Shown: one piece after another, positions 16,343 through 32,818 of the stretch | Layout: every line of letters begins with the position of its first letter | Position numbering within the stretch: the first letter of the stretch is position 1 | IMG/VR virus record: IMGVR_UViG_3300020429_000529 | Coordinates: 198,762 to 262,761 of that record | Reading direction: 5' to 3' (one strand) | Origin: a virus | Length of the DNA: 64,000 nt | Notes under the pieces: generated by a model | What the model was told of the DNA's origin: nothing | Seen by the model: the letters and a program-made list of their open reading frames with translations, nothing else | Database searches by the model: none | Position numbers and translations under genes: made by a program

Positions 16343-16753
16343 ATGTCAGAGTTTCACACGGTTCAGACCGAGTTTCTGCAGGACAATGAGGGAGCCTTGA
16401 TAAAGGCTCTGCAAGACATTGGGTACGAGCCCATTGTCTACGAAGACGCTGTTCATCTCGAAGGATACAGGGGAGACAAGAGAGAGCAGAAGGCTCACAT
16501 TGTCATTCCTCGCAAACAGATCAGCAACGCCAGCAACGATATCGGATTCGAGCGATTGGAGAACGGCAAGTACCGTCTTCATGTTTCTGAGTTCGATGAG
16601 ACTGGCTGGAAGAAGCAGTCTGAGAAACTGGTTCAGTATTACGGCAAGGCTGTTGTAGAGTCGATCGCTGAGTCTTCTGACTACTCGATGGTTGAGGAAG
16701 TTGAGGACGAAGATGGCACCATCCGTATCCGTATGCGGATCAACGAGTATTGA
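16343..16753 (+). CDS. DUF1257-like protein
   Basis: MSEFHTVQTEFLQDNEGALIKALQDIGYEP...GYRGDKREQKAHIVIPRKQ...DIGFERLENGKYRLHVSEFD matches the pattern I recall for the DUF1257 family. Confidence 0.4.
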   Translation: MSEFHTVQTEFLQDNEGALIKALQDIGYEPIVYEDAVHLEGYRGDKREQKAHIVIPRKQISNASNDIGFERLENGKYRLHVSEFDETGWKKQSEKLVQYYGKAVVESIAESSDYSMVEEVEDEDGTIRIRMRINEY

Positions 16754-17675
16754 TCTCGCTGATGGGCGGATCGAATGCTCGCTCTGTCCGATCCGCTGCA
16801 AGCTCCGTGAGGGACAGCGAGGCCGTTGCATGGCTCGGTACTCGGATGGTCAGTCGATCCTCTTAGAAGCCCCTCAGATCAGTTCTGCGGCTATCGAGCC
16901 GATCGAGAAGAAACCTCTCTATCACTACAAGCCCAATCTTCGAACTCTGTCGTTCGGAGGTTATGGCTGCAACATGTCCTGCGATTTTTGTCAGAACTGG
17001 ATGGTTTCGCAAGAGAAGCCTTCTGATCTGATGGACGGCTATCAGCTTATCAGTATGGCCCGAGAGCATGAATGCGATGCTCTCTGTATGACATACAACG
17101 AGCCGCTGATCTACTTTGAGTTCTTAGATTTCCTGCGACAGTCTTGGGATCAAGATCTGGTCATCAAAACCAATGCCTATTGCGAGGCCGATCCATGGTC
17201 TGAGGTCTGCGATTGGGTCGATGCCATGAATATCGACTGGAAGGGCTCTGAGGCTCGCTACAGGGCTGTCGCAAAGACAGATGGGGCGACGACCCTTCGA
17301 CGCATCGAAGAGGCTCTGGCGGCGTCTGTGCATGTCGAGATCAGCGTTCCTGTCTATCTTGATGGAGAGGATGACGAGTACCTCGATTTTGCTGATTGGT
17401 TGTCGAGCCTCGATCGATCAACGCCTATCCATCTGCTCAAGCTCTTTCCCGCATTCAGGAACGTGTCGCAGCCTGCTACTCCCGACAAGAAGATCTCTCG
17501 TATCCGAGATGCGATGCTTGAGCGTCTTGATTACGTCTATGCTCACAATATCTTTGGCGAAGCTGGACGAGAGATGAAGAGAACCATCTGCAGATCTTGC
17601 GGGCAAAAAATCGCTGATCGGACGGGTCTTCGTACCGAGTTTTCTGTCTGTGGATGCGGCACGATTAGGACATAA
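16692..17675 (+). CDS. radical SAM enzyme (PflA / AmmeMemoRadiSam-like)
   Basis: The CNMSCDFCQNW CxxxCxxC cluster and an N-terminal Cys motif (CSLCPIRCKL...GRC) resemble PFL-activating-enzyme-like radical SAM proteins. It lies inside the glycan island. The start is uncertain (16692 or 16713). Confidence 0.65.
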   Translation: MRKLRTKMAPSVSVCGSTSIDLADGRIECSLCPIRCKLREGQRGRCMARYSDGQSILLEAPQISSAAIEPIEKKPLYHYKPNLRTLSFGGYGCNMSCDFCQNWMVSQEKPSDLMDGYQLISMAREHECDALCMTYNEPLIYFEFLDFLRQSWDQDLVIKTNAYCEADPWSEVCDWVDAMNIDWKGSEARYRAVAKTDGATTLRRIEEALAASVHVEISVPVYLDGEDDEYLDFADWLSSLDRSTPIHLLKLFPAFRNVSQPATPDKKISRIRDAMLERLDYVYAHNIFGEAGREMKRTICRSCGQKIADRTGLRTEFSVCGCGTIRT

Positions 17676-17718: not shown

Positions 17719-18771
17719 ATGTCTAAACTCGATATCTTTCATGTCATACCGACGCTGTTTCCGTATGGGGCATATAGCTCGCTCTCGGAACTCCATTACG
17801 CAATCGACAAGTATTACGGAGACGTTGGACAATATATCTTGTCTCTGAAAGACGAGAATCATAAGGGGATGTTCGAACTCCCTCACAAGATCGTTCCATT
17901 GAGCGGTCTCAAAGCGAAGATCCAATCCAAGTCAACGAATCCGGTTGTCTTTTTTCACAAGCTCTCAGCGACAGATTGCAAGCCTGTGTCCGCTGTTCTT
18001 TACAATGACATACCCTTTGTCATTGTAAATCATACGCAGACTAATAAGCCGAGAGGTTTTGCTCGCAACAATGGTATCGTTGCGGTGTCCGATCATATGT
18101 ACCAAACATTGTCAAAGGGCTTCAAGGGATTCAATTTTCATCGTATCCGAAATGGCGTCAACGGCGAACGCTATGAGAACATCGAGCCCTATTACCCTGA
18201 CGAAGTTGAAGGCTACTTTGTTACGGGTCGGATGAACAACTTCAATGGATGCAAGCATCCGAACGACTGGATCCCGTGGGTCAAGGCGACTTGGATCGGC
18301 TCTCCTCATTGGCATGACTATCTTGGCGACGGTCAATACTTTCAACGAGCCAGTCAGCAGGCCAACAAGCGGGGTCGATCAGCCATGCGACCCAATGTCT
18401 GCAATATGCCAGGTCGAATCAACGGCTTCAAAGACAAGGTTGCCTATCTGAAGCGATGGCAAGTATTCTTGTACGAGATCCGAGGAACTGAAGGTACGAG
18501 CATGGCTCTTCTCGAAGCGCTTGCTTGCGGAATCCCTGCCATCATCAACAACAAGCCAGGAAACCATGAGATTGTCACAAAGAAGGTCAATGGCTATGTC
18601 TACAACAGCAGAGAACAACTGCTTGCAAAGATAAAATACCTGGTTGAAAACCCAGCCTATCTTGAAGACTTGAGCGCCAGCACGAAGGCCAACTTTGATG
18701 CCAAGCTCGACGCAAGGTACATGGCGAAAGAATACGTCGATCTGGCGAAGAAGGTCATCAATGAGTTCTGA
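17719..18771 (+). CDS. GT-B glycosyltransferase (GT4-like)
   Basis: The C-terminal EGTSMALLEALACGIPAIINN motif is typical of the GT1/GT4 retaining glycosyltransferases. Confidence 0.65.
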   Translation: MSKLDIFHVIPTLFPYGAYSSLSELHYAIDKYYGDVGQYILSLKDENHKGMFELPHKIVPLSGLKAKIQSKSTNPVVFFHKLSATDCKPVSAVLYNDIPFVIVNHTQTNKPRGFARNNGIVAVSDHMYQTLSKGFKGFNFHRIRNGVNGERYENIEPYYPDEVEGYFVTGRMNNFNGCKHPNDWIPWVKATWIGSPHWHDYLGDGQYFQRASQQANKRGRSAMRPNVCNMPGRINGFKDKVAYLKRWQVFLYEIRGTEGTSMALLEALACGIPAIINNKPGNHEIVTKKVNGYVYNSREQLLAKIKYLVENPAYLEDLSASTKANFDAKLDARYMAKEYVDLAKKVINEF

Positions 18772-19540
18772 GAAGCCTCTGTTCTCTATTTTGACCTGCT
18801 CCTACAATCAGAAGCAGTTCCAAGGTGTTTGGCTGAAGTCCGTGTTGCGTCAGGACTATCGACCTCTTGAGGTTGTGTTTGTTGATGATTGCTCCGATAC
18901 AAACGATGCAAAAGCTCTTGAGAAGCATCGCAAGCTATTCGAGGATGCAGGTATAGATCTCACGATTCATCGCAATCAAGACAGTCTCTACTGCGCCTCT
19001 TCTTACCTTGAGGCTCTGCGTCTTGCTAAAGGAGACTACTTCGGGGTTGTTGACGCTGATGATGCTTTGACTGAGGGATCTGTTTCGGCTGTCATGAAGT
19101 GCTATCTCAAGCATCCTGATGTTGGCTTTATCTATACGCAGTTTGATTGGTGTAACTCTGAAATGGGAAACTGCCGCAGGGGATTCTGCAGACAACCAGC
19201 AAGGGGTCGTAATCTGTTGACGGGAGAGAAGAGTCCGCAGTCAAGGCATTGCTATTCTCACTGGCGGACGTTTAGGCGGCTTCCTGATATTGAGTCGATT
19301 TTCAAGCCAAGGTTGAGATGTTCAGTTGACAAGTATATGGGCTACCGTCTTGAGGAGTTGGCTCCAGGAGTCTTCTTAAATCGGGTATGTTACAAGTATC
19401 GTAACGGCGTATCTTCGGGGGTAACTCAAAACGAAAAGTCGATAGAAACATGGAAGTCGGTACGAAGAGAAGTCATGCGGCGCAGAAAAGCCAATCAAAC
19501 CAAGGTCTATCCAATCAGGACAATACAGACTAAACGATGA
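18761..19540 (+). CDS. GT2 family glycosyltransferase
   Basis: FSILTCSYNQ ... VVFVDDCSDTND is the GT-A N-terminal signature. The ORF track starts at 18695; the ATG at 18761 overlaps the upstream stop. Confidence 0.65.
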   Translation: MSSEKPLFSILTCSYNQKQFQGVWLKSVLRQDYRPLEVVFVDDCSDTNDAKALEKHRKLFEDAGIDLTIHRNQDSLYCASSYLEALRLAKGDYFGVVDADDALTEGSVSAVMKCYLKHPDVGFIYTQFDWCNSEMGNCRRGFCRQPARGRNLLTGEKSPQSRHCYSHWRTFRRLPDIESIFKPRLRCSVDKYMGYRLEELAPGVFLNRVCYKYRNGVSSGVTQNEKSIETWKSVRREVMRRRKANQTKVYPIRTIQTKR

Positions 19541-20478
19541 GACTATCGCTATCAAGAAGTTTGAAAGGCGACCGAGGAGTAAATCACTTCATGCGTCGTC
19601 TCGTGAAGCATCTGAAGTCAGATTACGATGTCAAGATTGTAGATGCCAAGGCTCCGTCTGATATCCATCTGGCAGTCATCAGCGGCATCAAGCCTGGCAC
19701 AAAGAACGTCTTGCGTCTGGATGGCGTCTACTATGACGTTGGTCGTCTCAAGATGAATGTCCCCATTCTGAAGGCTCTCAAGGCCGCAGATGGAGTTGTC
19801 TACCAGAGCGCATGGTGTCAGACATTCGTTCAGAAGATGCTCAGAGCAAAGCCTCGTAGTTCTACGGTTGTATGGAACGGCGTCGATCAGTCTCAGTTCA
19901 AGCTCCCGAAGCAGAAGAACCCCCATGGCTTTGATAAGGTGTTCGTCTCATGCGCTCACTGGCGACCCAATAAAAGACCTGAAGCTATGGCTGAGGCCTT
20001 CATCCAGGCCAACAATCTGACTGATTTGAACTTGGGTTTCTACTTCATAGGTAAGGTTGAAAAGCGAGCCAAAGTCGATCATCCCAATATCATCTACCAC
20101 GGGACGGTCTCGAATGACTCTTTACCGGAGTTGTATTCTCAATCAGACTACATGGTTCACATTTGTCACATTGATGCCTGCCCCAACTCGGTTGTCGAGG
20201 GGCTTTCGGCAGGGCTGCCTGTCTTGAGCAACAACTTGTCGGGCACTCCTGAGATTGTTGGCAAGAGCGGAATCATTCTTCCGATCGACAAGCCATTTAA
20301 CTTCAAACCGTTGCATGATATCAACTCGGTCGGGTCATCCTCTGTAAGGATCAAGACTCTGCGACAAGGCATGCTGAGCATGCTTGATAAAGATTGGAAC
20401 ATAGAAAGACCAGACCTCGATATCAAGGTCTCGGCGAGGAAGTATTATGACTACTTCTGCGAAATCCTCAAGTCCTAA
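19537..20478 (+). CDS. GT-B glycosyltransferase (GT1/GT4-like)
   Basis: CPNSVVEGLSAGLPVLSNN C-terminal GT-B motif. Confidence 0.6.
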   Translation: MRLSLSRSLKGDRGVNHFMRRLVKHLKSDYDVKIVDAKAPSDIHLAVISGIKPGTKNVLRLDGVYYDVGRLKMNVPILKALKAADGVVYQSAWCQTFVQKMLRAKPRSSTVVWNGVDQSQFKLPKQKNPHGFDKVFVSCAHWRPNKRPEAMAEAFIQANNLTDLNLGFYFIGKVEKRAKVDHPNIIYHGTVSNDSLPELYSQSDYMVHICHIDACPNSVVEGLSAGLPVLSNNLSGTPEIVGKSGIILPIDKPFNFKPLHDINSVGSSSVRIKTLRQGMLSMLDKDWNIERPDLDIKVSARKYYDYFCEILKS

Positions 20479-21271
20479 GACGACTATCGTTGTTTCGAAC
20501 TACAACTACAAGCGGTACGTCGGTGCGTGCCTTGAAAGCTGCGCGAAACAGACAAACCCTTGCAAGGTCATTATTGTTGATGATTGTTCGACCGATAGTT
20601 CTTGGCAGGTTATCAAGAAGACCATTGACGAGAATCCTCATTTCTCTGCAATCCGACTGAACGCAAACAGCGGAGGCAACGCCAGGGGCAAGAACGTCGG
20701 TATCTTCTATGCGAAGACCCCATATATCATGTGTCTCGATTCTGATGATGCTCTTGTTCCGAAGGCAATTGAGAAGCTTGAAGACAGTATCGAGGGCGTT
20801 GATATTGTCCATGGCAAGGCTCGTCGAGTCGAGACAACAGTCGATACCTTCAAGGGGATGATGGCGAAAAAGTATCAGACCTGGGAACGATACGAAAAGT
20901 TTGAAAACACTCCCGAAGACAGCATCGAATGGTATAAGTGCATGGAGGCCTCAACCATCCTTGTTCGTCGAAATGTCTATGAGCATGTAGGTCTTTTTAA
21001 CGAAGACCTGAAGTGGAAGATAGACAGAGAGATGTGGTATAGAGCAATCAACGAGGGACATTCTCGTCGATTCCTTGATCTCCATGTTTCTCTCTATCGA
21101 GGTCATCCGCAGCAGATTACAAGAAACCCGAAGAGGAAGAAGCCGCTCAAGATTGACGAGAAGTTTGAGCAGATTATCCGTTCGTATGGAACCAAAACCG
21201 ACAAGAGGCTTTCGTTGGACTCGTACAACCCCGAACCTCATGTCCTTAAGACCATTGGGGCACCTCTCTAA
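20447..21271 (+). CDS. GT2 family glycosyltransferase
   Basis: TIVVSNYNYKRYVGACLESCAKQTNPCKVIIVDDCSTDSS is the GT-A signature. Confidence 0.65.
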   Translation: MTTSAKSSSPKTTIVVSNYNYKRYVGACLESCAKQTNPCKVIIVDDCSTDSSWQVIKKTIDENPHFSAIRLNANSGGNARGKNVGIFYAKTPYIMCLDSDDALVPKAIEKLEDSIEGVDIVHGKARRVETTVDTFKGMMAKKYQTWERYEKFENTPEDSIEWYKCMEASTILVRRNVYEHVGLFNEDLKWKIDREMWYRAINEGHSRRFLDLHVSLYRGHPQQITRNPKRKKPLKIDEKFEQIIRSYGTKTDKRLSLDSYNPEPHVLKTIGAPL

Positions 21272-21273
21272 GT

Positions 21274-22134
21274 ATGGAATACTTCAAGCTCATCAACGGA
21301 CAGACAGGACGGAACACGGGCTACATCATGGTCCGTCGTCCTCCTATCAATAGGAAGCGCTGGAAAGAAGTCCAGAAGAGATACGAAGGCAAGATCATCG
21401 GCATTTCTTGCAATCGTGATTTCCCTCGCAAGAGTCCCGATGTTGTAGACGTAGCTTCGGGCTGGTTGCATGTCTTCCGAGATCCGCAGGCGCATGGAAT
21501 ACCTGAGTCAATGCCTCAGATGCTATTGGGCGAATCGGACTTCGTTTCCGTTGATAAGAGGTTTGTCACAAAGAAGAAACGCTTTGACTTCTACTATGTC
21601 TGTCTTGGTTCTTCTTCGCAACGTCGCTCCAAGAACTTCAAGCTCTTTCAAGCGAGTCTCCCAATTCTCTGCGGAGAACTTGGACTAAGAGGCGTCGTCA
21701 TCGGTATGAAGCAGTTCAAGGACATGGAGCAATGGAATAGTTATCTCACATGGACGGGCCGCAGACGACCAAGCGAAGTTTTCAACTACATTGGTCAGTC
21801 TCGGTTTGGCTTCTTTCCAAACGTAACAGACGCATCCCCAAAGGCCCTTACCGAGGGCTTTGCTCTCAATGTGCCGTCGCTTGTCAACAACAAGATCTAC
21901 GGAGGCTGGAAATACATAGACGACCAGACTACTGGTCATTTCTTCAATCCGGATCTGACAGATCTCAAGGAGAAGGCTAAGCTCATAACAGCAGGCCACT
22001 ACTCCGCAAGGGATACTTTCTACAAGGACTGGGGGACCAAGAATGCCAGCCGTAAACTTGGCAAGTTTCTCCGAGATATCTACGGTAAGCAAGGTCTGAA
22101 GAAAGTGTATATCCAAAAAGCGCAGAAGGTGTAA
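21274..22134 (+). CDS. putative GT-B-like glycosyltransferase / hypothetical
   Basis: The C-terminal FGFFPNVTDASPKALTEGFALNVPSLV resembles the GT-B E-x7-E region. Weak call. Confidence 0.35.
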   Translation: MEYFKLINGQTGRNTGYIMVRRPPINRKRWKEVQKRYEGKIIGISCNRDFPRKSPDVVDVASGWLHVFRDPQAHGIPESMPQMLLGESDFVSVDKRFVTKKKRFDFYYVCLGSSSQRRSKNFKLFQASLPILCGELGLRGVVIGMKQFKDMEQWNSYLTWTGRRRPSEVFNYIGQSRFGFFPNVTDASPKALTEGFALNVPSLVNNKIYGGWKYIDDQTTGHFFNPDLTDLKEKAKLITAGHYSARDTFYKDWGTKNASRKLGKFLRDIYGKQGLKKVYIQKAQKV

Positions 22135-22135
22135 G

Positions 22136-22894
22136 ATGAGCGATAAGCCACTTGTATCCATTGTGATACCTCTTTACAACTATGCTCGGTACGTTTCAGA
22201 TTGCTTGAAGTCTGTTCTGTCTCAAACGCATCAGAACATCGAAGTCATTGTCATTGACGACTGTTCAAGCGATAATCCAAAGAAGGTCATCAAGCCTTTT
22301 CTTGAGACAGATAGTCGGCTGCAGTTTCACAAGAACGACAGCAATCGAGGCGTAAGCTTTACACGGAATCGAGGCATCAGGATGTGCAAGGGAAGTTACA
22401 TCTGCTATATCGATGCCGATGACATGATGACTTTGAAATCGATTGAGCTAAGGCTTGCAAAGCTTCAAGCGTCTGAGAGGATATGGGTCCATGGCAGGGT
22501 CTATGACCTCATTAATGGCAAGAGGGTGCCCGACAAGAGCTTCCATGGTATTCAGAAACAGTATCGCTCTGCGATGCCGAAGCCTGTAACCCGATATGCG
22601 AAATCGGTTCATTCTCAATCTGTTCTTGTTGAGCGAGAGTTCTTCAAGATACTTGGTATGTTCGAAGAGGATATCCATTACGGAGAAGAGCAAGACTTAT
22701 GGCGTCGGGCTCTTGCCTTTGGTTATCATCCTGAATACGTTAGCGACTTTGTTGCGGTTCATAGAAATCACAAGCAGCAAACCAGATTTGGCAAGTATAG
22801 GCCAAGAAAAGAAGAGTGGTACAAAGAGTCTGAGCGACGACTGAAGATCAGGCTAAAGAACGGTATTACAGCCGAGAACACGATATTGCTATGA
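22136..22894 (+). CDS. GT2 family glycosyltransferase
   Basis: VSIVIPLYNYARYVSDCLKSVLSQTHQNIEVIVIDDCSSDN and a DAD (DxD) motif. Confidence 0.65.
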   Translation: MSDKPLVSIVIPLYNYARYVSDCLKSVLSQTHQNIEVIVIDDCSSDNPKKVIKPFLETDSRLQFHKNDSNRGVSFTRNRGIRMCKGSYICYIDADDMMTLKSIELRLAKLQASERIWVHGRVYDLINGKRVPDKSFHGIQKQYRSAMPKPVTRYAKSVHSQSVLVEREFFKILGMFEEDIHYGEEQDLWRRALAFGYHPEYVSDFVAVHRNHKQQTRFGKYRPRKEEWYKESERRLKIRLKNGITAENTILL

Positions 22895-23508
22895 TCGTAC
22901 ACGGAAAGAGATGCATCTTCATACATATCAACCGCTGCGCCGGGAACAGCATGGAGGAGATTCTGCGCCCCTTCACTCAGGGTAAGTTTGGGCTTCAATC
23001 TCCGTATCCAAGTCGGTCAGCCAAACATCTCAATGCTATTGAGCATCGCAATGCTGCTCACAGGTTAGCATGGCGAGATTACTACAAGTTCTCTTTTGTG
23101 AGGAATCCTTGGGACAAAATGCTTTCGTACTATCTTCTCAAGAGGCGAGACAACAAAGACTTCAAGAAACAGTACCGAACGTTCGACGACTGGATCAAGT
23201 CGGATTTCTTTACTCTCAAGCTTCCTTACATGCATACTTATCGTCATCGCAAGTTTACCAATCAGATCGATTGGCTCACAAACGAGCGAGGTCAGAATCA
23301 GATGAACTTCGTAGGCAGGTTTGAGACGATAGCAAAGGACTGGGCAACGGTTGCGGCCAGAATCGGCGTCGATCGAAAACTTCCTCACACCAACAAGACA
23401 AGTCACGATCATTATTCTTGCTACTATGACGATGAAAGCATAGAGATTGTTCGAAAGCTATTTGAGAAAGACATAGCGTACTTCAGGTACGATTTCGAGG
23501 AGGCCTGA
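22891..23508 (+). CDS. carbohydrate sulfotransferase (Sulfotransfer_2-like)
   Basis: CIFIHINRCAGNSMEEIL is the 5'-PSB-like motif (compare IFIHIPKTGGTS). VRNPWDKMLSYY is the 3'-PB motif (compare RDPxxRxxSxY). Confidence 0.6.
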   Translation: MIVHGKRCIFIHINRCAGNSMEEILRPFTQGKFGLQSPYPSRSAKHLNAIEHRNAAHRLAWRDYYKFSFVRNPWDKMLSYYLLKRRDNKDFKKQYRTFDDWIKSDFFTLKLPYMHTYRHRKFTNQIDWLTNERGQNQMNFVGRFETIAKDWATVAARIGVDRKLPHTNKTSHDHYSCYYDDESIEIVRKLFEKDIAYFRYDFEEA

Positions 23509-24140
23509 TGCTATTTCAGTGTAGGACAAAGCTCAAGAATGCAATGGATGATCCCAAGATCCGAAGCGTGCTTGAAATAGGCAGCGGCCTAAATGCTACT
23601 CCGGTCATCGTCAAGAAGTTTGATCGAGGAGCTATCGACCGCTATGTTTCTCTTGAAACAAGTTCCGAATGGGCTGAGAAGGTCAACGGCAAGTGCAAGA
23701 GAGAAGTCGTCACGCTGGCGGACTTTGGCTTCGACAAAGAACGAGGCATCTTTGCGTATGACTACAGCAGCGTTTACAAGTTTGATCTCATCTTCGTAGA
23801 TGGGCCTGGCAAGCTTCAGGGAGACGACTATAGCGCTGCGGTCAAGCTCTGCGAACAATCAGACTTTTGTTTGAGTTCTCCTACCGCTGCTGGTATCCAG
23901 TCCATCCATATGATCGAGGCATTCCGCAGCAACATCCATGACGATACGGTTATCATGGTAGACGGTCGCAGGGCGGCTGTCCTCTATTATCTGAGCAGGT
24001 ATCAGGATGAGTTTGATTTCTTCTTTGGCGGGACTCCGTATCCCAAGAAGCGACTCAAGGAAATACTGAAACCAGAGTTTCGCCATCTCGCTAAATTCAA
24101 TGTCGGAGAAATCACGACCATGGTAAGGAAGAAGAAGTGA
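23508..24140 (+). CDS. putative class I SAM-dependent O-methyltransferase (Methyltransf_24-like)
   Basis: VLEIGSGLN motif I and DLIFVDGPG (compare DLIFIDGDH). Confidence 0.45.
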   Translation: MLFQCRTKLKNAMDDPKIRSVLEIGSGLNATPVIVKKFDRGAIDRYVSLETSSEWAEKVNGKCKREVVTLADFGFDKERGIFAYDYSSVYKFDLIFVDGPGKLQGDDYSAAVKLCEQSDFCLSSPTAAGIQSIHMIEAFRSNIHDDTVIMVDGRRAAVLYYLSRYQDEFDFFFGGTPYPKKRLKEILKPEFRHLAKFNVGEITTMVRKKK

Positions 24141-24787
24141 GAGTATTTGACTTTAGCACAGCAAGGCAAGCCGATGCGGTTGTTGTGATCGGCGGCGGTC
24201 CAACCGCAGGCAGACGGCTGCCAGATGCTCGAAAGTTCGCAGAAGAACGAGGCGCTCTCGTCTATTCGGCCAACTATGAGCATGACGATTTGCCTTCAGA
24301 TTACATCTGCTTCGCTACGCCATCGAAGTTCAAAGAGTGTCTCAACAAGAAACCGAACTGCAAAGATCTTGTTGTTCGAGACAAGGTGGCTCCAAAGACC
24401 AAGAGGTATCCTGGGTACAACTATTACCAGTTCTGCTCGCAAGACGCCAGCGATGGGGCATATTCGATCAAGAGCATCCCCTTGACAAAGTATGGTCATT
24501 TCCCCCTTTACAACATTGGTAACGCTGGCTTTTCAACCATAGCCCTCGCTTGCTTGAGCAGACCCAAGGATATGCTTCTTGTTGGCTTTGATGGATTGAG
24601 AGACGAAAGCAGTAAGCTCACATACGAAAACAAAGTCATGGCGTATCCTGCAAAGAAGGGCGCTGACAAGAAGATCTACTTCGGCAAGGTCATTCTTCAG
24701 TTTGCCCTTGATAGGGGCATACGGTTGCATGCCTTTGAGGATGACGCCCTATGGGGATGGCAGAGTAAGGCAAATATCATCGCATGA
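24137..24787 (+). CDS. DUF115/GT42-like protein, paralog 3
   Basis: VVVIGGGPTAG ... LLVGFDGLRDE has the same GxGPS + GxDG architecture as the 12727 and 13512 genes. Confidence 0.4.
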   Translation: MRVFDFSTARQADAVVVIGGGPTAGRRLPDARKFAEERGALVYSANYEHDDLPSDYICFATPSKFKECLNKKPNCKDLVVRDKVAPKTKRYPGYNYYQFCSQDASDGAYSIKSIPLTKYGHFPLYNIGNAGFSTIALACLSRPKDMLLVGFDGLRDESSKLTYENKVMAYPAKKGADKKIYFGKVILQFALDRGIRLHAFEDDALWGWQSKANIIA

Positions 24788-25443
24788 AGAATGTAAGCTA
24801 CGACATTTTCAAGCCTGTTGATTCGGTAATCATCATGGCTGCGGGACCATCTATCAGCAGTAACTTTGATGGTATACGCAGGTTCCAGGCGGAGAATCCT
24901 GATCACGTGGTTCTTGCTTGCAACTATGATTTTCCGATTGATGCGGAGTATACGGTCTTCATAGACAATGGCAGATATCGCAGGTTCATCGATTCGATTC
25001 GTAGCCCCAACATCATCATTGCTCCCTACTTTGGGCCTTGGCTTAAGAAGAAGCACTTCACGGCAGATCGTACCTTCTACAAGCTAAAATGGAATGCTGA
25101 CGTACAGCCATATGACGTAAGCGGAATTCTCGTCAACAAAGATGGCAGTACGGGTCATAAGCTTGGCAACTGCGGAATGACATGCTTGTATCTTGCTCAC
25201 ATGTTTAGGCCAACCAAGGTTCTTGTTGCTGGTCTCGACGGCCCTCAGCCTGACAATAAGACTGTCAAGCATTTCAACAATATCACAAGGACTTGGACTA
25301 AGAAAGACATCGATCGAGTAGATCCGAAGAAGAAGTACCTTCGAAAGCTTGTCAAGTTTTTGCGAGCAAGAGGTGCGGAGACTTACACGTTTAGTAACTG
25401 TCCTTTTTGGGAACAGCAGAGCATAGCGAGGATTTGGGAATGA
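24784..25443 (+). CDS. DUF115/GT42-like protein, paralog 4
   Basis: VIIMAAGPSISS ... VLVAGLDGPQPDN. Confidence 0.4.
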   Translation: MKNVSYDIFKPVDSVIIMAAGPSISSNFDGIRRFQAENPDHVVLACNYDFPIDAEYTVFIDNGRYRRFIDSIRSPNIIIAPYFGPWLKKKHFTADRTFYKLKWNADVQPYDVSGILVNKDGSTGHKLGNCGMTCLYLAHMFRPTKVLVAGLDGPQPDNKTVKHFNNITRTWTKKDIDRVDPKKKYLRKLVKFLRARGAETYTFSNCPFWEQQSIARIWE

Positions 25444-26102
25444 GCCTGGTAGAGGCATTCATCTTCACTAATGGAGCAGAAATTGCCAAGCATTGCGAGC
25501 AATGCCTGAAGGCGCAGACGGTTCCCTGCCCATATCGCATTATACAAGGCAAGTCTCTGTTGGATGCGATACAGTTTGCCATGGAAGAGAGCGTATCGGA
25601 TTTCTTCATCAAGCTCGATGATGACATGTTGCTTCATCCGAGAGCGATTGAGTATCTAACTCCGAGGCTAAGGGTCTGTAGAGAGCGACGAAATCTCGCT
25701 ATGTACGGATGCAGGCTATGGGAGCCTTGGGGCAATAGGACAATTCGTTGCATCAAGGCATACAAGACCAAGGCTTGTCGAGACATTGGTTTTCGATCAG
25801 ACAAGAGAGGCAAGATAGATCGCGCCTTTGTTGCCGATATGACTCAGAAGGGGTACAGGCATCTGCAGGATCGAAGCGTGATTGCCGTTCATGGTTTGAG
25901 ATCGCTTTCGGATCAGCAGCAGTATCGTCGGCTTTGGGCCAGGAATGCTGGCAAGACCGTTTCTGAACTAAGATCGGTAGACAAGGATCAGACTCGCATT
26001 GTCTCAGTCGTTCCTTCATACAAAAAACAGGTCAAATGGATTCGCAAAATTGACACTGTAAACGAGAAGACCAAGTTTGGCAAGTTGCTAAGAGATGGGT
26101 AA
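25440..26102 (+). CDS. putative GT-A-like glycosyltransferase / hypothetical
   Basis: N-terminal layout with IKLDDDMLLHP (DxD-like). The ORF track starts at 25407. Weak call. Confidence 0.3.
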   Translation: MSLVEAFIFTNGAEIAKHCEQCLKAQTVPCPYRIIQGKSLLDAIQFAMEESVSDFFIKLDDDMLLHPRAIEYLTPRLRVCRERRNLAMYGCRLWEPWGNRTIRCIKAYKTKACRDIGFRSDKRGKIDRAFVADMTQKGYRHLQDRSVIAVHGLRSLSDQQQYRRLWARNAGKTVSELRSVDKDQTRIVSVVPSYKKQVKWIRKIDTVNEKTKFGKLLRDG

Positions 26103-26904
26103 TCGCATACGACAACTTTTCACGTTTCCTCAGGTTCAGCATCTACATGATCGGCTGAAGGCGAGGTACGGTCTTGAGGATCGGGCGACTAAGAAGGCTC
26201 CGATGATTTCCTTCGGCTGCTATCCTGGTAGCAAGAAAGAGATCCAGATGTTACTTAAGCAGCAGGATCTTGTCGTTGTCGTTTGGGCCGGTAGCGATGC
26301 CATGTATATGAGAATGCCCAAGCATCGCGAGATGATGAAGGCGGTCAAGAAGGCATCTCATTTCCGTCATATCGCTATCTCTCAATACATTGTCAAAGAC
26401 CTCAAAGCTCTCGGGATACGCCATGAGTTTCTCCCGGTTTCGCAGGTCAACGAATCAATGTTTTCGCCCGAGCCTATGGGGGACAGTATCTTCTTCTACG
26501 ATTCAGTTTCATCTCGTAAGAGCGTTTTCTATGGAAGCGAGATTGTCAAGGAGATCAAGGCCAAGATGCCTGGCGTCAAGTTTGTCTCGGGCGCTCAGGC
26601 AGGTAAGACTCATGTTTCATACGCATCAATGCCCGATGTCTATCGGAAGTGCTTCTTAGGACTAAGGCCGACCCCTCATGATGGTTTGCCGAATACGGCG
26701 GTTGAACTCGGCCTCATGGGACGGAGATGCATTTGCAATCATGAGCTACCAAACTGCCTTCGCTACAGAGATGTCAAAGACATCATGGAGATTATCGAGC
26801 GAGAGCAGGGTCGTATTGGTCAAACGGATATTGAGACGGCTGAAAAGATGAAACGATACATCAGTATACCTGATGATTGGCTAAATGAGGATCACTATGG
26901 CTGA
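26095..26904 (+). CDS. hypothetical protein, possibly glycosyltransferase-like
   Basis: GLRPTPHDGLPNTAVELGLMGRRCICN is weakly like a GT-B C-terminal segment. Confidence 0.3.
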   Translation: MGNRIRQLFTFPQVQHLHDRLKARYGLEDRATKKAPMISFGCYPGSKKEIQMLLKQQDLVVVVWAGSDAMYMRMPKHREMMKAVKKASHFRHIAISQYIVKDLKALGIRHEFLPVSQVNESMFSPEPMGDSIFFYDSVSSRKSVFYGSEIVKEIKAKMPGVKFVSGAQAGKTHVSYASMPDVYRKCFLGLRPTPHDGLPNTAVELGLMGRRCICNHELPNCLRYRDVKDIMEIIEREQGRIGQTDIETAEKMKRYISIPDDWLNEDHYG

Positions 26905-27562
26905 ATGGAATGCAAATAAGACTCGGATTATCTATGAGAGCGAAGAAGAGTTCTTGGAGATTCAATCTGGTCGAACCAAGGATGAACTTGAGCCTTACGA
27001 CTCAACGCAATACCCGCAAGTTGTAACTGATCTTCTTCGATTCTATCCCTACATCGAGAAGAACTCGTTGATCCTTGATGCTGGATGCAGAGACGGATGG
27101 ACCATGCTCCGCATGAAGGAAGATGGTTATAATTGCGTCACTGGTGTTGATGTTGTTCCAAGGGCTATCGATTTCTGTCATCAGAGGGGGCTGAACGCTT
27201 CTGTTCAGAACATTCAAGAGATGGACTTCGATGACGCCTCGTTTGATGCTGCCTTTTGCAGGCATACGCTTGAACACACCATCAACCCCAAGAAGGCATT
27301 GAAGGAGATGGCGAGGGTCGTAAAGCCCGGTGGCGTCGTCTTTGTAATCATTCCCATTGAGTCAGGCAAGAGGAAGCTCAAGGCGAGACGGAAGATCAAG
27401 TTTGGTCACTCTTATGTCTTTGAAGGCGACAACAAGTTCCTTGAACTGATCGATGATTCTCTATACAAGCTGGTTGGCCGATTCCATGACCAAACCATCA
27501 AATACATTGCTTCGATTTTTGTGCTGAGAAGGAGATCCGATGACGACGAAGCTGATAGCTGA
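26885..27562 (+). CDS. class I SAM-dependent methyltransferase
   Basis: ILDAGCRDGWTM (motif I), VTGVDVV (motif II) and VKPGGVVFV (post-III). Confidence 0.65.
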   Translation: MRITMAEWNANKTRIIYESEEEFLEIQSGRTKDELEPYDSTQYPQVVTDLLRFYPYIEKNSLILDAGCRDGWTMLRMKEDGYNCVTGVDVVPRAIDFCHQRGLNASVQNIQEMDFDDASFDAAFCRHTLEHTINPKKALKEMARVVKPGGVVFVIIPIESGKRKLKARRKIKFGHSYVFEGDNKFLELIDDSLYKLVGRFHDQTIKYIASIFVLRRRSDDDEADS

Positions 27563-28337
27563 ACTGTCAATGAACTTCATGGGCGACATGGAGCTTGCCG
27601 AAGAGATGATCTCTGCTGCCGCTCATGCAGGCGCAGATTACGTCAAGTTTCAAACCTGGAAGGTTGACAAGCTTGTAGAAGGTCCATGGGACAATGATGG
27701 GCGTCGAGAGGTCTACGAGAAGGCAGAGCTTTCTGAGGCCGATCATGAGCATCTGAAGGTCATCTGCGAGGCGAATGGGACGAAGTTCTTGACTTCGGTC
27801 TTCTCTCCTGATCTGCTCCCCATGGTCAGCGGTCTGAGCGATTCTGTGAAGATCGCAAGCACCGAATGTTGCAATCGAGAACTGATCGATCAAGCAACAA
27901 GGTTGTTTGAGAATGTCTTTGTGAGCGTTGGCGCTACGAATGCCGAAGACTACCGATATCTTGCGGATATCGAGAATGTCTACATGTTGCATTGCGTTTC
28001 GGCATACCCTTGTCCTGCAGATCAAGTCAACATGCCTCGCCTTGACTACATCAGGAGTTTGACTCCTCGCTTTGGTTATAGCGGTCATTACTTTGGCATA
28101 TGGGATGCTATTGCTGCCATCAGCAGAGGCGCAACAGTTGTAGAGAAGCACTTCACTACTGACCAATCTCTTCCGTTTCGAGATAACCAGTTTGCGATTT
28201 TGCCGCAAGATCTGGCTCTAATCAGAGAGTATGCCGATGAGTTCGATAGGATGAACATCGATCATGGGGTCGATATGCAATCCGCCGAGGCCGAAGTTAA
28301 GAAAGCGTACTCTGGCAGATGGATGGGCACCTCTTGA
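27540..28337 (+). CDS. second NeuB-family nonulosonic acid synthase (core TIM barrel)
   Basis: IAELSMNFMGDMELAEEMISAAAHAGADYVKFQTWK matches the NeuB/PseI N-terminus. Confidence 0.65.
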   Translation: MTTKLIAELSMNFMGDMELAEEMISAAAHAGADYVKFQTWKVDKLVEGPWDNDGRREVYEKAELSEADHEHLKVICEANGTKFLTSVFSPDLLPMVSGLSDSVKIASTECCNRELIDQATRLFENVFVSVGATNAEDYRYLADIENVYMLHCVSAYPCPADQVNMPRLDYIRSLTPRFGYSGHYFGIWDAIAAISRGATVVEKHFTTDQSLPFRDNQFAILPQDLALIREYADEFDRMNIDHGVDMQSAEAEVKKAYSGRWMGTS

Positions 28338-29251
28338 TACTGTATGTTGGTCCAACTGAATACATGGATCTTGTCAAAGAAGTTTCCGGCATGTCGGTTT
28401 TTGCCGTCAACGACGAGCGAGAGATTGACATTCTCATACCGGAATGCGAATACATCCTCGATGCTTGCGTCAAGATCCCTTTTGATGCCAAGAGACTTTC
28501 GAGGGCCATGGTACTGAGGGCTTATGTTGCGGCATCAACGGGCACTTCTCACATTGATGTCGATCATCTTTCCGAGAGAAACATCCCGGTTTTGTCTCTT
28601 CTTGGTCGTCCTGAGATCAAGAATATCACATCGGCTGCCGAGCATTCATGGCATTTGTTGATGGCCGCTGCCAGAAATGTAAGAGCCTCAACGCAGCATG
28701 TTATCGACGGAGAGTGGGATCGGATGGCCTTCGATTCTCCCATGTTCATCGGTAGAACGCTTGGCGTCATCGGCTGCGGACGCATCGGAACTTGGATGGG
28801 AAGATACGCAACCGCTTTTGGCATGAATGTTGTCGGTTGCGATCCTCACGTGTCTGATTGGGAGTTTGAGCTTGCCGATATGGACGAGGTTCTGAGTCGT
28901 TCAGATTTTGTCACGATCAATGTCGCTTTGACCGATGATACGAAAGACATGATCGATCATGCTCAGTTGATGAAGATGAAGGATGGGGTCATCCTTGTCA
29001 ATACCTCCAATGGAGGCGTCATCAATGAGTACGCCTTGGCAGATAAGCTGATGTCGGGTAAGGTAGCTGCTGTAGGTCTTGATGTTCTGAAGAACGAACC
29101 CAACGTTCAAGAGAGCCCCCTTCTTGTTCTGGCTCGAAAGAATCCGAACATTGTCATAACCCCTCATATCGGAGGACGTAGCAGCGATGCCCTCAAGTAC
29201 GTCATCAAGTTCTGCGCAGAGCGAATCAGGGACCACGCCATACCTCGTTGA
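28319..29251 (+). CDS. D-isomer-specific 2-hydroxyacid dehydrogenase (phosphoglycerate dehydrogenase-like)
   Basis: Its NAD-binding motif is GVIGCGRIGTWMGRYATAFGMNVVGCDP. Catalytic-region motifs are present (VTPHIGG). Confidence 0.65.
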   Translation: MDGHLLILYVGPTEYMDLVKEVSGMSVFAVNDEREIDILIPECEYILDACVKIPFDAKRLSRAMVLRAYVAASTGTSHIDVDHLSERNIPVLSLLGRPEIKNITSAAEHSWHLLMAAARNVRASTQHVIDGEWDRMAFDSPMFIGRTLGVIGCGRIGTWMGRYATAFGMNVVGCDPHVSDWEFELADMDEVLSRSDFVTINVALTDDTKDMIDHAQLMKMKDGVILVNTSNGGVINEYALADKLMSGKVAAVGLDVLKNEPNVQESPLLVLARKNPNIVITPHIGGRSSDALKYVIKFCAERIRDHAIPR

Positions 29252-30611
29252 TGTAGCCTTTGGCGTTACGGGTAGCGGCAAATCTTGGCGAGTCGCCGAC
29301 AGCCTTGGGCCTCGATACATTCCGACGTATCACGAGGCTTCTGCTGCAATTATGGCCGGGGCTGTGAGTCTCAAAGGTTTCTTAGGGGCATCTCTTTCGA
29401 TCAAAGGGCCGGGCCTTACGAATGCCTTGCCGGGCATTGCAAACAACTTCTTTGAGAATCGACCGGCTCTCTCGATTTCTGAGCGATTCGAAGACGGATC
29501 AGAAAAGGCCCACAAAAGAGTAGACCATGACGCTCTCTTGCGACCCCTTGTGAAGGCAAGAGGACGACAAGGCTCTGACCTTGAAGTTCTATGGCATCGA
29601 GCAAGGATAGAACCTTGCGGTCCTGTTCATCAAGATCTTTGCGAGGGCGGAGAGATAGTTGTCGAGGCAGATCCGTATCGCCTGGATCCTGATGATTATC
29701 GCAAATCAAAGAGACCATCCATCCTTCTTGGAGGCGCTGCCTTGCGGAAGGGCGTTGATTTTTCGGGCGTCAACGTGCCCGTCTTTACGACTGCGACAGC
29801 GAAGGGTCTTCTCGATGAGTCGTTACCTCAGAGCGCTGGCGTCTTTACCGGGGTTGGGCTTGAGAACACCTGCGAGCCAATGACTGTTGCGGGCGATTGC
29901 GTTATCTGCGTTCAGGTTTACGATCATGAGCTTCTTTCTCCGCCTCCGAGGGCTAAGCACATAACGCTGAATGGCGTTGATGAGTTGCTGTCGTTCTTGG
30001 ATGGTAAAGAATGGGGTCTCCCGGTCATAGAGAAGACCAAGAGACAGCTTTCTGAGTTCAACATGGACGCCTGGTTGCCCTATCAGGCGTTTGACCATCT
30101 CAGCGCCCTTCCATGGCATCATGATGTTGTTGTCGATGTGGGGCTGTTCTCTGTCGTTGGAGAGCATGTCTGGCGGGCGTCTCCTGATAGAGGGTTCTAC
30201 GGAAGCCTGAATAGCCGCTATATGGGGACGGCGATCCCAACGGCCATCGGTCTCGGAGCAGTAAGCAAGAAGCCTATTTTCTGCGTCACCGGCGATGGCG
30301 GTTCCAATATGTACCTGACTGAGGCAAGAATCGCAGCAAACAGATCGATGCCCATCTGCTTCGTCATCATGTCCGATGGACGTTACGGAAGTATCGCACA
30401 GTCTTCGTCTGAACTGTATCAAGATGCTGTGAATATCTCTGCTCCCGATCATCGGGTTTTTGAAACATTTGGCATAGAGACTCATCAGGCTTTCTCGTTC
30501 AACTCTTTCGCGCACTACGTCGATACTTGGGATAGGGAATCTCCGCTCGCAATCTTCTGCTCGTTTGACCAAGATAGATATGCGACAATGACGAGAGGCT
30601 TGCGAAGATGA
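29187..30611 (+). CDS. thiamine-diphosphate-dependent enzyme (acetolactate synthase / sulfopyruvate decarboxylase / YerE-like carboligase family)
   Basis: The N-terminal Pyr domain is VDVAFGVTGSG. The C-terminal TPP-binding motif is GDGGSNMYLTEARIAANRSMPICFVIMSDGRYGSI (GDG-x24-N). The start overlaps the upstream gene by 65 nt. Confidence 0.6.
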   Translation: MPSSTSSSSAQSESGTTPYLVDVAFGVTGSGKSWRVADSLGPRYIPTYHEASAAIMAGAVSLKGFLGASLSIKGPGLTNALPGIANNFFENRPALSISERFEDGSEKAHKRVDHDALLRPLVKARGRQGSDLEVLWHRARIEPCGPVHQDLCEGGEIVVEADPYRLDPDDYRKSKRPSILLGGAALRKGVDFSGVNVPVFTTATAKGLLDESLPQSAGVFTGVGLENTCEPMTVAGDCVICVQVYDHELLSPPPRAKHITLNGVDELLSFLDGKEWGLPVIEKTKRQLSEFNMDAWLPYQAFDHLSALPWHHDVVVDVGLFSVVGEHVWRASPDRGFYGSLNSRYMGTAIPTAIGLGAVSKKPIFCVTGDGGSNMYLTEARIAANRSMPICFVIMSDGRYGSIAQSSSELYQDAVNISAPDHRVFETFGIETHQAFSFNSFAHYVDTWDRESPLAIFCSFDQDRYATMTRGLRR

Positions 30612-31582: not shown

Positions 31583-32232
31583 TCAATGCAAGGCTCGGTT
31601 CTTCGAGACTGCCGAACAAGATCATCAAGCCTTTCGGAGACACAACTCTCCTTGATATCGCTCTGAAGAAACTTGCAGCCATCGATAATCGAGAGAAGTA
31701 TCTCGCTGTTCATGACCAAGAACTGATCGATATCTATCGGAAGTACGAGAACGACATAGGCCTTATAGTGAGGTCTCCTGAATCGGTAGAGAAGGGAGCG
31801 GTTCCTCATCATATCGCTTTCCAGCACTACATGGATGTCAACGCCGATTCTGTCATGGTCATGAACCCTTGCCATCCCTTTACTCGACCTGAGACATACG
31901 AGAATGCTATTCAGCACTATATCGCAAAGGGTATGAGGTCCATGACATCTGTTGTCAAGAAGGAGAACATCTTCTTCGACCAGAACGGAGGGGTCGTGAA
32001 CTCCTCAAAGCAAAGGGAAGTCACGACTGTTGGGCATGACGCTCTATTCGAGATGGCGCATGCCTTCCATATCTTCCCGAAGAATGCCTTCCAAGAGGGC
32101 AGCAAAATTTGGAGCTATGAGTACGGCGATCCTGAGATGTATATTGTTGACAAGATGTCAGCCCTTGATGTAGATGATGAGATCGACTTCGCTCTCTGCG
32201 AAGGACTATACAAGAGCAATGCGAGAGATTAG
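31561..32232 (+). CDS. second CMP-sugar cytidylyltransferase (CTP_transf_3 family; CMP-nonulosonate synthetase-like)
   Basis: VAIVVNARLGSSRLPNKIIKPFGDTTLL is the N-terminal signature. Confidence 0.6.
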   Translation: MLSVAIVVNARLGSSRLPNKIIKPFGDTTLLDIALKKLAAIDNREKYLAVHDQELIDIYRKYENDIGLIVRSPESVEKGAVPHHIAFQHYMDVNADSVMVMNPCHPFTRPETYENAIQHYIAKGMRSMTSVVKKENIFFDQNGGVVNSSKQREVTTVGHDALFEMAHAFHIFPKNAFQEGSKIWSYEYGDPEMYIVDKMSALDVDDEIDFALCEGLYKSNARD

Positions 32233-32818
32233 TCTTGAACAATACATCATATCGAGAAGACCGATACTTGACAAAGAAGGCAAGTTCATTTTCTTCCCCA
32301 CGCATAAAGCATGCATGACATCCATTCAGCATGTGCTGAGGGATCGTATACTGACTCACAAAAAGCATGGTAAGAAGTACCAGAAGGCATTGAGAGCGGC
32401 AGCGGCATACCCCAAGGGGTACTACAAGTTCACGGTTGTTCGCAATCCCTATGACAGAACACTGTCTGCTTACAGGTATCTGAGCAAGATCAAGAGATAT
32501 CGAACTCTTGCGGAAGATAGGTTTAGGGACTTTTGCGTTAAGGGACTGGTTGGCTATTTGGGAGATGCGCATTTTTCGCACCAGCATCACAATGTCATGT
32601 TCCAAAACAGTCAGTTTGTTGACTTCGTTGCAAGATTCGAGAACATCGATACTGATTGGGAGATAATCGCTAACACGATTGGCTGCAAGGCCTCGCTTCC
32701 TGTCAAGAATGCGTCGAAGAAGAAGGTTGACTATCGAGACTACTACACGGACATGTCCAAGAAGACAGTCAAAAAGATATACAAGAATGATCTGAGGATA
32801 TTAGGGTATGACTTCTAA
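32174..32818 (+). CDS. second carbohydrate sulfotransferase
   Basis: FIFFPTHKACMTSIQHVL (5'-PSB-like) and VRNPYDRTLSAYRY (3'-PB RDPxxRxxSxY-like). Confidence 0.6.
   Translation: MMRSTSLSAKDYTRAMREISLEQYIISRRPILDKEGKFIFFPTHKACMTSIQHVLRDRILTHKKHGKKYQKALRAAAAYPKGYYKFTVVRNPYDRTLSAYRYLSKIKRYRTLAEDRFRDFCVKGLVGYLGDAHFSHQHHNVMFQNSQFVDFVARFENIDTDWEIIANTIGCKASLPVKNASKKKVDYRDYYTDMSKKTVKKIYKNDLRILGYDF

Follow-up and report, generated by a model that had tools for sequence, protein, structure and literature searches.

We identified two paralogous genes for predicted sulfotransferases, here called ST1 and ST2, in a 64,000-nucleotide stretch of viral DNA (IMG/VR record IMGVR_UViG_3300020429_000529, positions 198,762 to 262,761; this whole stretch is referred to as the window). 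Membership of both proteins in the Sulfotransfer_2 family, whose enzymes depend on 3'-phosphoadenosine 5'-phosphosulfate (PAPS), is supported by hidden Markov model scores, by sequence motifs, by the placement of these motifs and by the predicted fold. We propose, with a probability of about 0.65 as judged from sequences and structure models, that ST1 and ST2 are soluble PAPS-dependent enzymes which transfer sulfate to sugars in a glycoconjugate that is directed by the phage and includes sialic-acid-type sugars.

ST1 and ST2 Belong to the Sulfotransfer_2 Family

A first-pass annotation, made from the letters alone, had pointed to two open reading frames (ORFs) with motifs resembling the 5'-phosphosulfate-binding (5'-PSB) and 3'-phosphate-binding (3'-PB) elements of PAPS-dependent carbohydrate sulfotransferases. 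Both ORFs were confirmed on the plus strand, each with exactly the two motifs quoted (Table 1), and the presence of the motifs in both is far above chance level. For ST2 we use the public gene-call start; the start at 32174 given originally yields a protein of 214 amino acids. The two proteins share 30% identity (E = 2e-16) and are thus paralogues, and no third sulfotransferase copy was found in the window or in the 10 kb flanks on either side.

The Pfam profile PF03567 (Sulfotransfer_2), for which the gathering score is 22, matched ST1 with 48.9 bits (E = 1.3e-12) and ST2 with 41.8 bits (E = 1.8e-10), bearing out the family assignment. The alignment with ST2 spans residues 61-213 only; its 5'-PSB was checked via the family alignment and the structure model. 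Family phrog_3347 of the PHROGs database matched ST1 over nearly the full length (residues 4-203, E = 7e-21) and ST2 over the C-terminal two-thirds (residues 65-199, E = 1.1e-20). The label of this family, 'Galactose-3-O-sulfotransferase', is unsupported here, since the Pfam Gal-3-O-sulfotransferase profile PF06990 matched neither ORF even at E up to 0.1. In a set of 5.8 billion proteins, 555 homologues of ST1 were found (best non-self match 41% identical) and just 10 of ST2; PF03567 was present in every one of them (555/555 and 10/10).

Residue conservation was read from a family alignment of 74 sequences. Arg71, Pro73, Asp75, Ser79, Arg143, Glu145, and Tyr200 (ST1 numbering) are invariant (74/74), the column of Ser20 holds 71 serines and 3 threonines, and His46, whose counterpart in ST2 is His47, is kept in 73 of the 74 sequences. 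A review of polysaccharide sulfotransferases defines the class by a lysine or arginine of the PSB on a strand-loop-helix, a serine of the PB helix on a strand-turn-helix, and a beta-sheet core, and the PB consensus in PF03567 is PxxRxxS (PMC11625862). In the AlphaFold2 model of ST1 (mean predicted local distance difference test, pLDDT, 90.1; predicted template modelling score, pTM, 0.87), strand 8-11 leads through the loop with Arg15 into helix 18-28, and strand 65-70 leads through a turn into helix 73-87. The model of ST2 (pLDDT 92.9, pTM 0.88) places Lys30 in the loop between strand 23-26 and helix 33-43, followed by strand 69-74 and helix 77-89. The motifs thus lie on strand-loop-helix and strand-turn-helix units in both models, matching the published defining elements.

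All of the top 50 Foldseek matches (50/50) were sulfotransferase-fold proteins. An unrelated P-loop kinase family had been named at the outset as a possible alternative identity; that ST1 and ST2 are P-loop nucleotide kinases, or belong to another P-loop family that mimics the motifs, is extremely improbable given these fold matches and the absence of a Walker A motif (GxxxxGK[ST]) from both proteins. Profile and fold searches were needed because a single-sequence search of ST1 against Protein Data Bank (PDB) chains gave chance-level matches only. In the PDB, all matches of the family profile were to sulfotransferases; they were weak (E = 0.0026 at best) and aligned on the RNPxDxxVS of solved SULTs, and an N-terminal profile, 'vifiHinktgGtsiekal', aligns with the PAPS loop 'vIVFLHIQKTGGTTFGRHL' of HS6ST3. 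ST1 and ST2 have no hydrophobic segment, the highest Kyte-Doolittle mean over 19 residues being 0.40 and 0.53, respectively.

The Sulfotransferase Genes Lie in a Glycan Biosynthesis Island

Both genes lie in an island of about 23 kb (12.7-35.8 kb; 12727-35753), in which all genes are on the plus strand and many overlap by 1-11 nt (Table 1). That the two ORFs belong to a viral glycan-biosynthesis cluster, as first suggested, agrees with the glycosyltransferase, NeuB, NeuC, and CMP-transferase genes around them and with a genome that is most likely that of a huge phage. Directly upstream of ST1 is a block of six glycosyltransferase genes (17719..22894). ST1 overlaps the last of these, a GT2 gene, by ATGA and is translationally coupled to it, and overlaps the gene downstream by one base. 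ST2 sits between a CMP-transferase gene and the NeuC gene and overlaps the latter by 11 nt. Because the two genes are interleaved and overlapping with glycosyltransferase, NeuB, NeuC, and CMP-transferase genes, and because viral homologues are likewise flanked by glycan enzymes, we infer that their acceptors are sugars.

None of the 30 proteins scanned (29 island proteins and a short-chain dehydrogenase/reductase (SDR) paralogue at 51.8 kb) has a transmembrane-like segment, and Pfam scans and precomputed annotation revealed no flippase, polymerase, ABC exporter, or polyprenyl-phosphate/initiating transferase family among the island genes. An island of soluble proteins without export or initiating genes suggests that the glycan, including its sulfation, would be assembled in the cytoplasm, which would be more in keeping with protein glycosylation than with the export of a polymer to the cell surface.

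Table 1. Features of ST1, ST2, the surrounding island and viral PAPS-supply candidates. Positions refer to the window unless a locus (L number) is named.
Feature	Position	Strand	Remarks
ST1 (ORF1)	22891..23508	+	205 aa, soluble, Sulfotransfer_2 family
ST1 5'-PSB	22918-22950		FIHINRCAGNS; Arg15 in Lys/Arg column
ST1 3'-PB	23098-23133		VRNPWDKMLSYY; Arg71, Ser79
ST1 other residues			Candidate base His46; VGRFE motif with Arg143, Glu145
ST2 (ORF2)	32219..32818	+	199 aa, public gene-call start (ATG); paralogue of ST1
ST2 5'-PSB	32291-32323		FFPTHKACMTS; Lys30
ST2 3'-PB	32438-32473		VRNPYDRTLSAY; Arg75, Ser83
ST2 other residues			His47; VARFE motif
Module A, MptE/DUF115-like paralogue pair	12727-13515, 13512-14261	+	Precomputed Pfam; 54% identical
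Module A, PseF/KdsB-like cytidylyltransferase	14258-14962	+	Precomputed Pfam; NCBIfam PseF match below equivalog cut-off
Module A, NeuB-family synthase	14973-15845	+	Precomputed Pfam; NCBIfam NeuB/PseI below equivalog cut-off
Module A, haloacid dehalogenase (HAD)-type hydrolase	15829-16317	+	Precomputed Pfam
DUF1257 protein	16343-16753	+	Precomputed Pfam; between module A and glycosyltransferase block
Radical S-adenosylmethionine (SAM) protein	16713-17675	+	Precomputed Pfam; between module A and glycosyltransferase block
GT1-type glycosyltransferases	17719-18771; 19537/19591-20478	+	Pfam
GT2 glycosyltransferases	18761-19540; 20447-21271; 22136-22894	+	Pfam; GT2 paralogy
Weak GT1-like glycosyltransferase	21274-22134	+	Pfam
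Five unannotated soluble proteins	23508..26904	+	Downstream of ST1
Paralogous pair in unannotated block	24137-24787, 24784-25443	+	25% identity, E = 2e-14
SAM-dependent methyltransferase	26885..27562	+	Pfam Methyltransf_11, E = 2.3e-21
Module B, NeuB-family synthase	27540-28337	+	Pfam, NCBIfam
Module B, D-2-hydroxyacid dehydrogenase	28319-29251	+	Pfam
Module B, acetolactate-synthase-like thiamine pyrophosphate (TPP) enzyme	29187/29352-30611	+	Pfam, gene calls
Module B, GFO/IDH/MocA oxidoreductase	30608-31582	+	Pfam
Module B, CMP-sugar cytidylyltransferase	31561-32232	+	Pfam, NCBIfam; ends at ST2
Module B, hydrolysing UDP-GlcNAc 2-epimerase NeuC	32808-33911	+	NCBIfam TIGR03568 NeuC_NnaA, 311.4 bits (cut-off 235.9)
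Module B, SDR epimerase/dehydratase	33908-34846	+	Pfam
Module B, UDP-glucose/GDP-mannose dehydrogenase-family protein	34890-35753	+	Pfam
~270-aa protein	L019:4764-5591		N-terminal PF01583-like P-loop, E about 1e-12
~270-aa protein	L044:8370-9173		As above
~270-aa protein	L063:10094-10930		As above
~270-aa protein	L183:5235-6038	-	As above

Four MptE/DUF115-like proteins, two clear and two weak, occur in the island in two paralogous pairs (12727-14261 and 24137-25443); the product of 24784-25443 has a weak match of this kind below the cut-off (Pfam E = 5.9e-4). We take the MptE/DUF115 family to include Maf-type nonulosonic-acid transferases that act on flagellins in the cytoplasm, and the four proteins are candidate transferases for the product of the island. 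For three proteins tested from the unannotated block (23508-24140, 24137-24787, and 26095-26904), no PHROG match was obtained.

The dehydrogenase, the TPP enzyme, and the oxidoreductase (28319-31582) lie inside a NeuB/NeuC/CMP-transferase module and are odd for sialic-acid-type pathways; the product of these enzymes might be a branched or unusually acylated sugar. Outside the island, about 4.1-5.2 kb past the window end, a gene (L011:19679-20725) matches phrog_4603, 'alpha-2,3-sialyltransferase' (E = 1.6e-8), and a weak GT8/GT24-like gene lies near it. A gene of the phrog_4603 type would fit with a CMP-ulosonic acid being used.

Source of PAPS

The first-pass annotation had recommended a search for a PAPS supply (CysC/CysN) in the genome or its host, and for the window with its 10 kb flanks (~84 kb in all) the outcome was negative. 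Precomputed Pfam annotation of the whole window contains no APS (adenosine 5'-phosphosulfate) kinase, ATP sulfurylase, or PAPS reductase (PF01583, PF01747, PF01507), and six-frame phmmer and hmmsearch searches of the ~84 kb for APS-kinase-type genes gave no match. As queries we used E. coli CysC, validated by its strong matches elsewhere, together with five viral APS-kinase-type proteins, four of which were also combined into a profile. With no local supply gene, PAPS would have to be provided by the host or by a gene in another part of the genome.

Such genes do occur next to viral relatives of ST1 and ST2. At L037 and L068 a full APS kinase gene (PF01583, E = 4e-68; 10610-11191) directly follows a sulfotransferase pair, and a conserved protein of ~270 amino acids with an N-terminal APS_kinase and a C-terminal CTP_transf_like part is encoded near viral sulfotransferase arrays at L019, L044, L063, and L183, the last being the contig of the closest homologue of ST1. 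This protein may be a compact viral PAPS-synthesis enzyme. APS kinase genes beside the viral relatives support the view that the viral family in general depends on PAPS.

Proposed Function and Alternatives

In the proposed mechanism, the 5'-phosphosulfate of PAPS would be held on the strand-loop-helix by Arg15 and Ser20 in ST1 and by Lys30 and Ser35 in ST2, and the 3'-phosphate on the strand-turn-helix by Arg71 and Ser79 or Arg75 and Ser83, respectively. The conserved His46 (His47 in ST2) would be the probable base that deprotonates the acceptor hydroxyl, after which an in-line attack on the sulfate would follow. The acceptors would most likely be sugars of a glycoconjugate built in the cytoplasm of the infected cell by the six glycosyltransferases, the two NeuB/CMP-transferase modules, and the four MptE/DUF115-like proteins of the island, and the final target may be either a virion protein or the host envelope. 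If ST1 and ST2 are active, a phage-directed glycan with sialic-acid-type sugars would gain a strongly anionic sulfate ester, and this could alter virion surface charge, adsorption, stickiness to marine particles or mucus, and recognition by hosts or grazers.

A more specific form of this proposal is that the sulfated sialic-acid-type glycan is made wholly in the cytoplasm and put on virion proteins by the Maf-like DUF115 transferases, with ST2 sulfating the nonulosonic acid or its precursor. We regard this form as tentative and rather unlikely to be correct in full; if true, it would be the first time that a bacterial virus was shown to make a sulfated glycan, and prokaryotic viruses would have a counterpart to the sulfo-sialoglycans of animals.

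Alternatively, with the same chemistry and a different target, the sulfated glycan could remodel the host envelope (lipopolysaccharide, capsule, or glycoprotein) via the export machinery of the host instead of decorating the virion, for example blocking superinfection or adsorption during a long infection. We hold this to be possible if somewhat doubtful. In its favour, phrog_3347 is filed in PHROGs under 'moron, auxiliary metabolic gene and host takeover', the genes around the island are of the replication type, with no recognisable structural genes next to it, and phage-encoded alteration of host capsule nonulosonic acids is documented in Acinetobacter (PMC6586298, PMC12053666). Against these stands the make-up of the island, which lacks not only the export and polyprenyl-phosphate transferase families named above but any membrane protein, and whose four MptE/DUF115-like proteins resemble Maf-type transferases, enzymes that add glycans to proteins inside the cytoplasm.

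It is also unlikely that ST1 and ST2, as true PAPS-dependent sulfotransferases, act not on a sugar but on a small molecule, a lipid, or a protein side chain (for example a hydroxylated residue, or a Tyr, Ser, or Thr, in a tail-fibre or collagen-like protein). Fold searches also matched tyrosylprotein, steroid, and glycopeptide (StaL) sulfotransferases, with Z values just slightly lower, so that the fold by itself does not discriminate between acceptor classes. In bacterial operons predicted by Iyer et al. (2010; PMC2938197), tail-collar or collagen-like proteins are modified by sulfotransferases, 2-oxoglutarate (2OG)-dependent dioxygenases, and PAPS synthetases; a 2OG-FeII_Oxy_3 gene is present ~7 kb past the window end. 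This gene is ~35 kb from ST2, and no dioxygenase gene or gene for a tail-collar or collagen-like substrate adjoins ST1 or ST2.

Points Against the Proposed Function, and the Maintenance of Both Genes

Several observations weigh against sulfation of phage-directed sugars by ST1 and ST2. The basic column of the PSB holds lysine in 63 and arginine in 11 of the 74 family sequences; ST2 has the lysine, but ST1 is among those with arginine. Arginine in place of lysine is tolerated in some sulfotransferases, for example Stf0 and the NodH-type RxG (PMC11625862). The PSB loop of ST2 lacks the usual histidine and glycine of the family, a K-x-C-x-x-S variant that is common to its closest relatives P0122 and P0123. 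Sequence-level matches to the PDB were weak (E about 0.003-0.3), with a top identity of 18% to any solved sulfotransferase and no characterised close relative among the matches, and His46 could not be aligned residue by residue with the catalytic histidine of HS6ST, in which a long insertion intervenes. To these points are added the absence of a PAPS-supply gene from the ~84 kb, in which no capsid, portal, or terminase gene was seen either, and two features of sequence variation, an elevated substitution ratio and a replacement in an invariant motif.

The same island is present in independent marine assemblies, namely a 90 kb Logan contig, MDTC01 and TARA scaffolds, and genomes of 498,610 and 502,461 bp, and ST1 and ST2 are full length in every assembly examined. 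The two genomes are the ENA contigs ERZ17089788 NODE_1289088 and ERZ25074452 ctg12106_378x_c, respectively. Both are intact in the 502 kb sister genome, which is ~2% divergent. Against this genome the ratio of non-synonymous to synonymous substitution rates (dN/dS; Nei-Gojobori) was 0.14 for ST1 (7 synonymous and 4 non-synonymous substitutions) and 0.23 for ST2 (6.3 and 5.7). These values, on ~11-12 substitutions each, are above those of the 15 other island genes compared, which lie at 0-0.10 except for the methyltransferase (0.13 on three substitutions). Both genes are thus under purifying selection that is somewhat relaxed, with one possibly impaired allele. Of the four ST1 replacements in the 502 kb genome, the one that concerns this allele is D75G, which alters the invariant RNPWD of the 3'-PB (codon 75, window 23113-23115). 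It is found on a single long-read contig, against the window-identical variant with Asp on 15 contigs, including those of ~498.6 kb; it is thus an error of assembly or else an allele whose function may be impaired. The motifs of ST2 are unchanged in all variants. A truncated ST1 of 185 amino acids without the PSB, annotated in the 502 kb genome, was traced to the start-codon choice of the gene caller; the DNA keeps the full ORF.

The substitution ratios, D75G, and the departure of ST2 from the PSB consensus together with its few homologues could indicate that one or both genes are decaying or non-catalytic, being lost or kept as binding or scaffold proteins. We consider this quite improbable, as the dN/dS values are still well under 1, the dominant variants of these full-length ORFs keep the PAPS-contact residues (Lys/Arg, Ser, Arg, Ser), D75G is confined to one contig, and the ST2 loop is shared with its nearest relatives.

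Distribution of the Family

The first-pass annotation had held that sulfated glycans are rare in bacteria and not described as phage-encoded products. Rarity does not hold at the level of the gene family, which is carried by at least 582 species-level bacterial and archaeal genomes of many phyla. The second statement does not hold for genes and annotations; for products it is not refuted by the literature searched. A pattern scan of IMG/VR found relatives on at least 557 viral contigs, the best relative of ST1 among the matches listed being 37% identical; a single-sequence scan of IMG/VR gave no close relatives of ST2. Homologues with 23-28% identity were found by tblastn in Ralstonia phage phiRSL1, Stenotrophomonas phage DLP_6, and two uncultured huge phages, and those of phiRSL1 and DLP_6, which belong to phrog_3347, are annotated as 'sulfotransferase-like protein' and 'sulfotransferase', respectively. 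Sulfotransferases have also been named among previously reported viral auxiliary genes (PMC8290583), and Sulfotransfer_3 genes are described in marine phage genomes with the remark that their 'biological function ... remains unclear' (PMC10580990). ST1 and ST2 are therefore ordinary additional members of a known phage-borne family, and a claim of novelty fails at the gene level. For this window the main yield is a solid annotation together with this correction. The literature searched contained no demonstration of sulfotransferase activity for a phage protein and no description of a sulfated glycan of a phage; with the family this common on viral contigs, a single biochemical characterisation would annotate hundreds of viral genes.

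From IMG/VR, 78 loci were kept, in which 187 family genes were counted, and most loci have 2-8 copies. Their immediate neighbours are mostly glycosyltransferases, FkbM methyltransferases, and sugar-nucleotide enzymes, and the nearest homologues P0002 and P0123 likewise lie among glycosyltransferase genes. Within 20 kb, arrays of eight copies (L019:1-20618), five tandem copies (L063:3111-6365), and three tandem copies (L183:8706-10600) were observed; paralogue arrays interleaved with glycosyltransferases suggest combinatorial sulfation patterns.

Comparison With Known Systems

Eukaryotic Sulfotransfer_2 enzymes, such as heparan-sulfate 6-O- and 2-O-sulfotransferases and the carbohydrate sulfotransferases (CHST), have catalytic domains of 300-400 amino acids, whereas ST1 and ST2 comprise ~200 in total. 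The Golgi-type enzymes among them have a type II membrane anchor and a luminal domain, which ST1 and ST2 lack; the first strand of ST1 starts at residue 8. Identity to the eukaryotic enzymes is at most 18%, arginine replaces the PSB lysine in ST1, and the acceptor is certainly not a glycosaminoglycan produced by the known pathway.

In gene context, the island resembles the Maf/DUF115 nonulosonic-acid glycosylation islands for flagellins of Campylobacter and Helicobacter, with NeuB-type, CMP-transferase, NeuC-type, and MptE-like genes, a parallel that may hint at the destination of the sulfated sugar. We know of no sulfotransferases in those islands, and the MptE-like matches of 24137-25443 are weak. 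The members of phrog_3347 in phiRSL1 and DLP_6 are phage-encoded and of similar size, but ST1 and ST2 share merely the 23-28% identity given above with them. Among sampled viral loci the sialic-acid-type context of ST1 and ST2 is rare, CTP_transf_3 being found in 2 of 130 neighbours. Sulfation of prokaryotic glycoconjugate sugars with PAPS, as proposed here, is known from the characterised bacterial enzymes NodH, KpsS, and Stf0.

The glycosylation cluster of Moumouvirus australiensis encodes a sulfotransferase (Ma461) and a SAT/APS kinase (Ma457) (PMC10117803, PMC11625862). The sulfotransferase was proposed to sulfate sugars of the virion fibrils, with the remark that 'experimental validation is needed' (PMC10117803; echoed in PMC11625862). 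As in the island described here, a predicted sulfotransferase lies among sugar-nucleotide and glycosyltransferase genes in this and related Megavirinae clusters. Moumouvirus, however, is a eukaryotic giant virus that has its own PAPS synthase beside the sulfotransferase and uses the sugars bacillosamine and N-acetylquinovosamine (QuiNAc), whereas the window has bacterial-type replication genes, genes for sialic-acid-type sugars, and no APS kinase or ATP sulfurylase gene within ~84 kb. What sets ST1 and ST2 mildly apart is that they are paired with two ulosonic-acid modules, that all proteins of their island are soluble, and that this ~500 kb marine phage has no local PAPS supply.

The Genome Carrying the Island

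The genome is very probably that of a huge phage of ~500 kb from the marine 0.22-3 µm fraction (TARA_128_DCM). Virus status rests on replication genes and on relatives in IMG/VR; we do not place the assignment higher, since the ~84 kb showed no capsid, portal, or terminase gene. PHROG scans of large ORFs past the window end likewise gave no structural family. The window and flanks encode DnaB, DnaG, the alpha subunit of DNA polymerase III (PolIII-alpha), topoisomerase I, a T4-type dNMP kinase, and a clamp loader (phrog_5846, E = 2.7e-69), whose relatives with 46-64% identity lie on IMG/VR viral contigs of 257-351 kb. Also present are a UvsX/RecA-like recombinase (phrog_97), a Cas4-type exonuclease, UvrD, DnaJ, SpoVS, and many ORFs without a family.

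Megablast of 22-34 kb against deposited phages gave no match. Searched by tblastn, the phage collection had only matches of 31-40% identity to the helicase, topoisomerase, and DnaJ genes. Many of the records matched by UvrD, TopA, and DnaJ under the names 'Listeria phage LM 4-11-1', 'Enterococcus phage Efs 1-1-1', or 'Bacteriophage sp.' resemble short bacterial contigs. As contamination-like records, they are no sign of phage relatedness and do not help to classify the genome. A scan of cellular genomes returned no relatives above 37% identity and hence no clue to a donor or host.

A role of the island in DNA hypermodification was considered, as it lies among replication genes and DNA methyltransferases, and was set aside, with nothing specific in its favour. 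At least three genes for N6/N4 DNA methyltransferases were counted, and no tRNA genes were found in the 64 kb window. PolIII-alpha is split over two ORFs (467 and 678 amino acids) with three small genes between them, and the zinc-ribbon and Toprim parts of DnaG are encoded separately; the split genes were located at L091:234-9682 (~10 kb upstream of the window) and at window 4282-5088. A PolyA_pol/HD protein of the CCA-adding type (900 amino acids; 58463-61165) has an N-terminal extension of ~300 amino acids of unassigned function. Finally, a LAGLIDADG_3/AP2-like gene (263 amino acids; 44950-45741) is present in the window and in the 498 kb genome and absent from the 502 kb sister genome, and is probably an insertion polymorphism of a mobile homing endonuclease.

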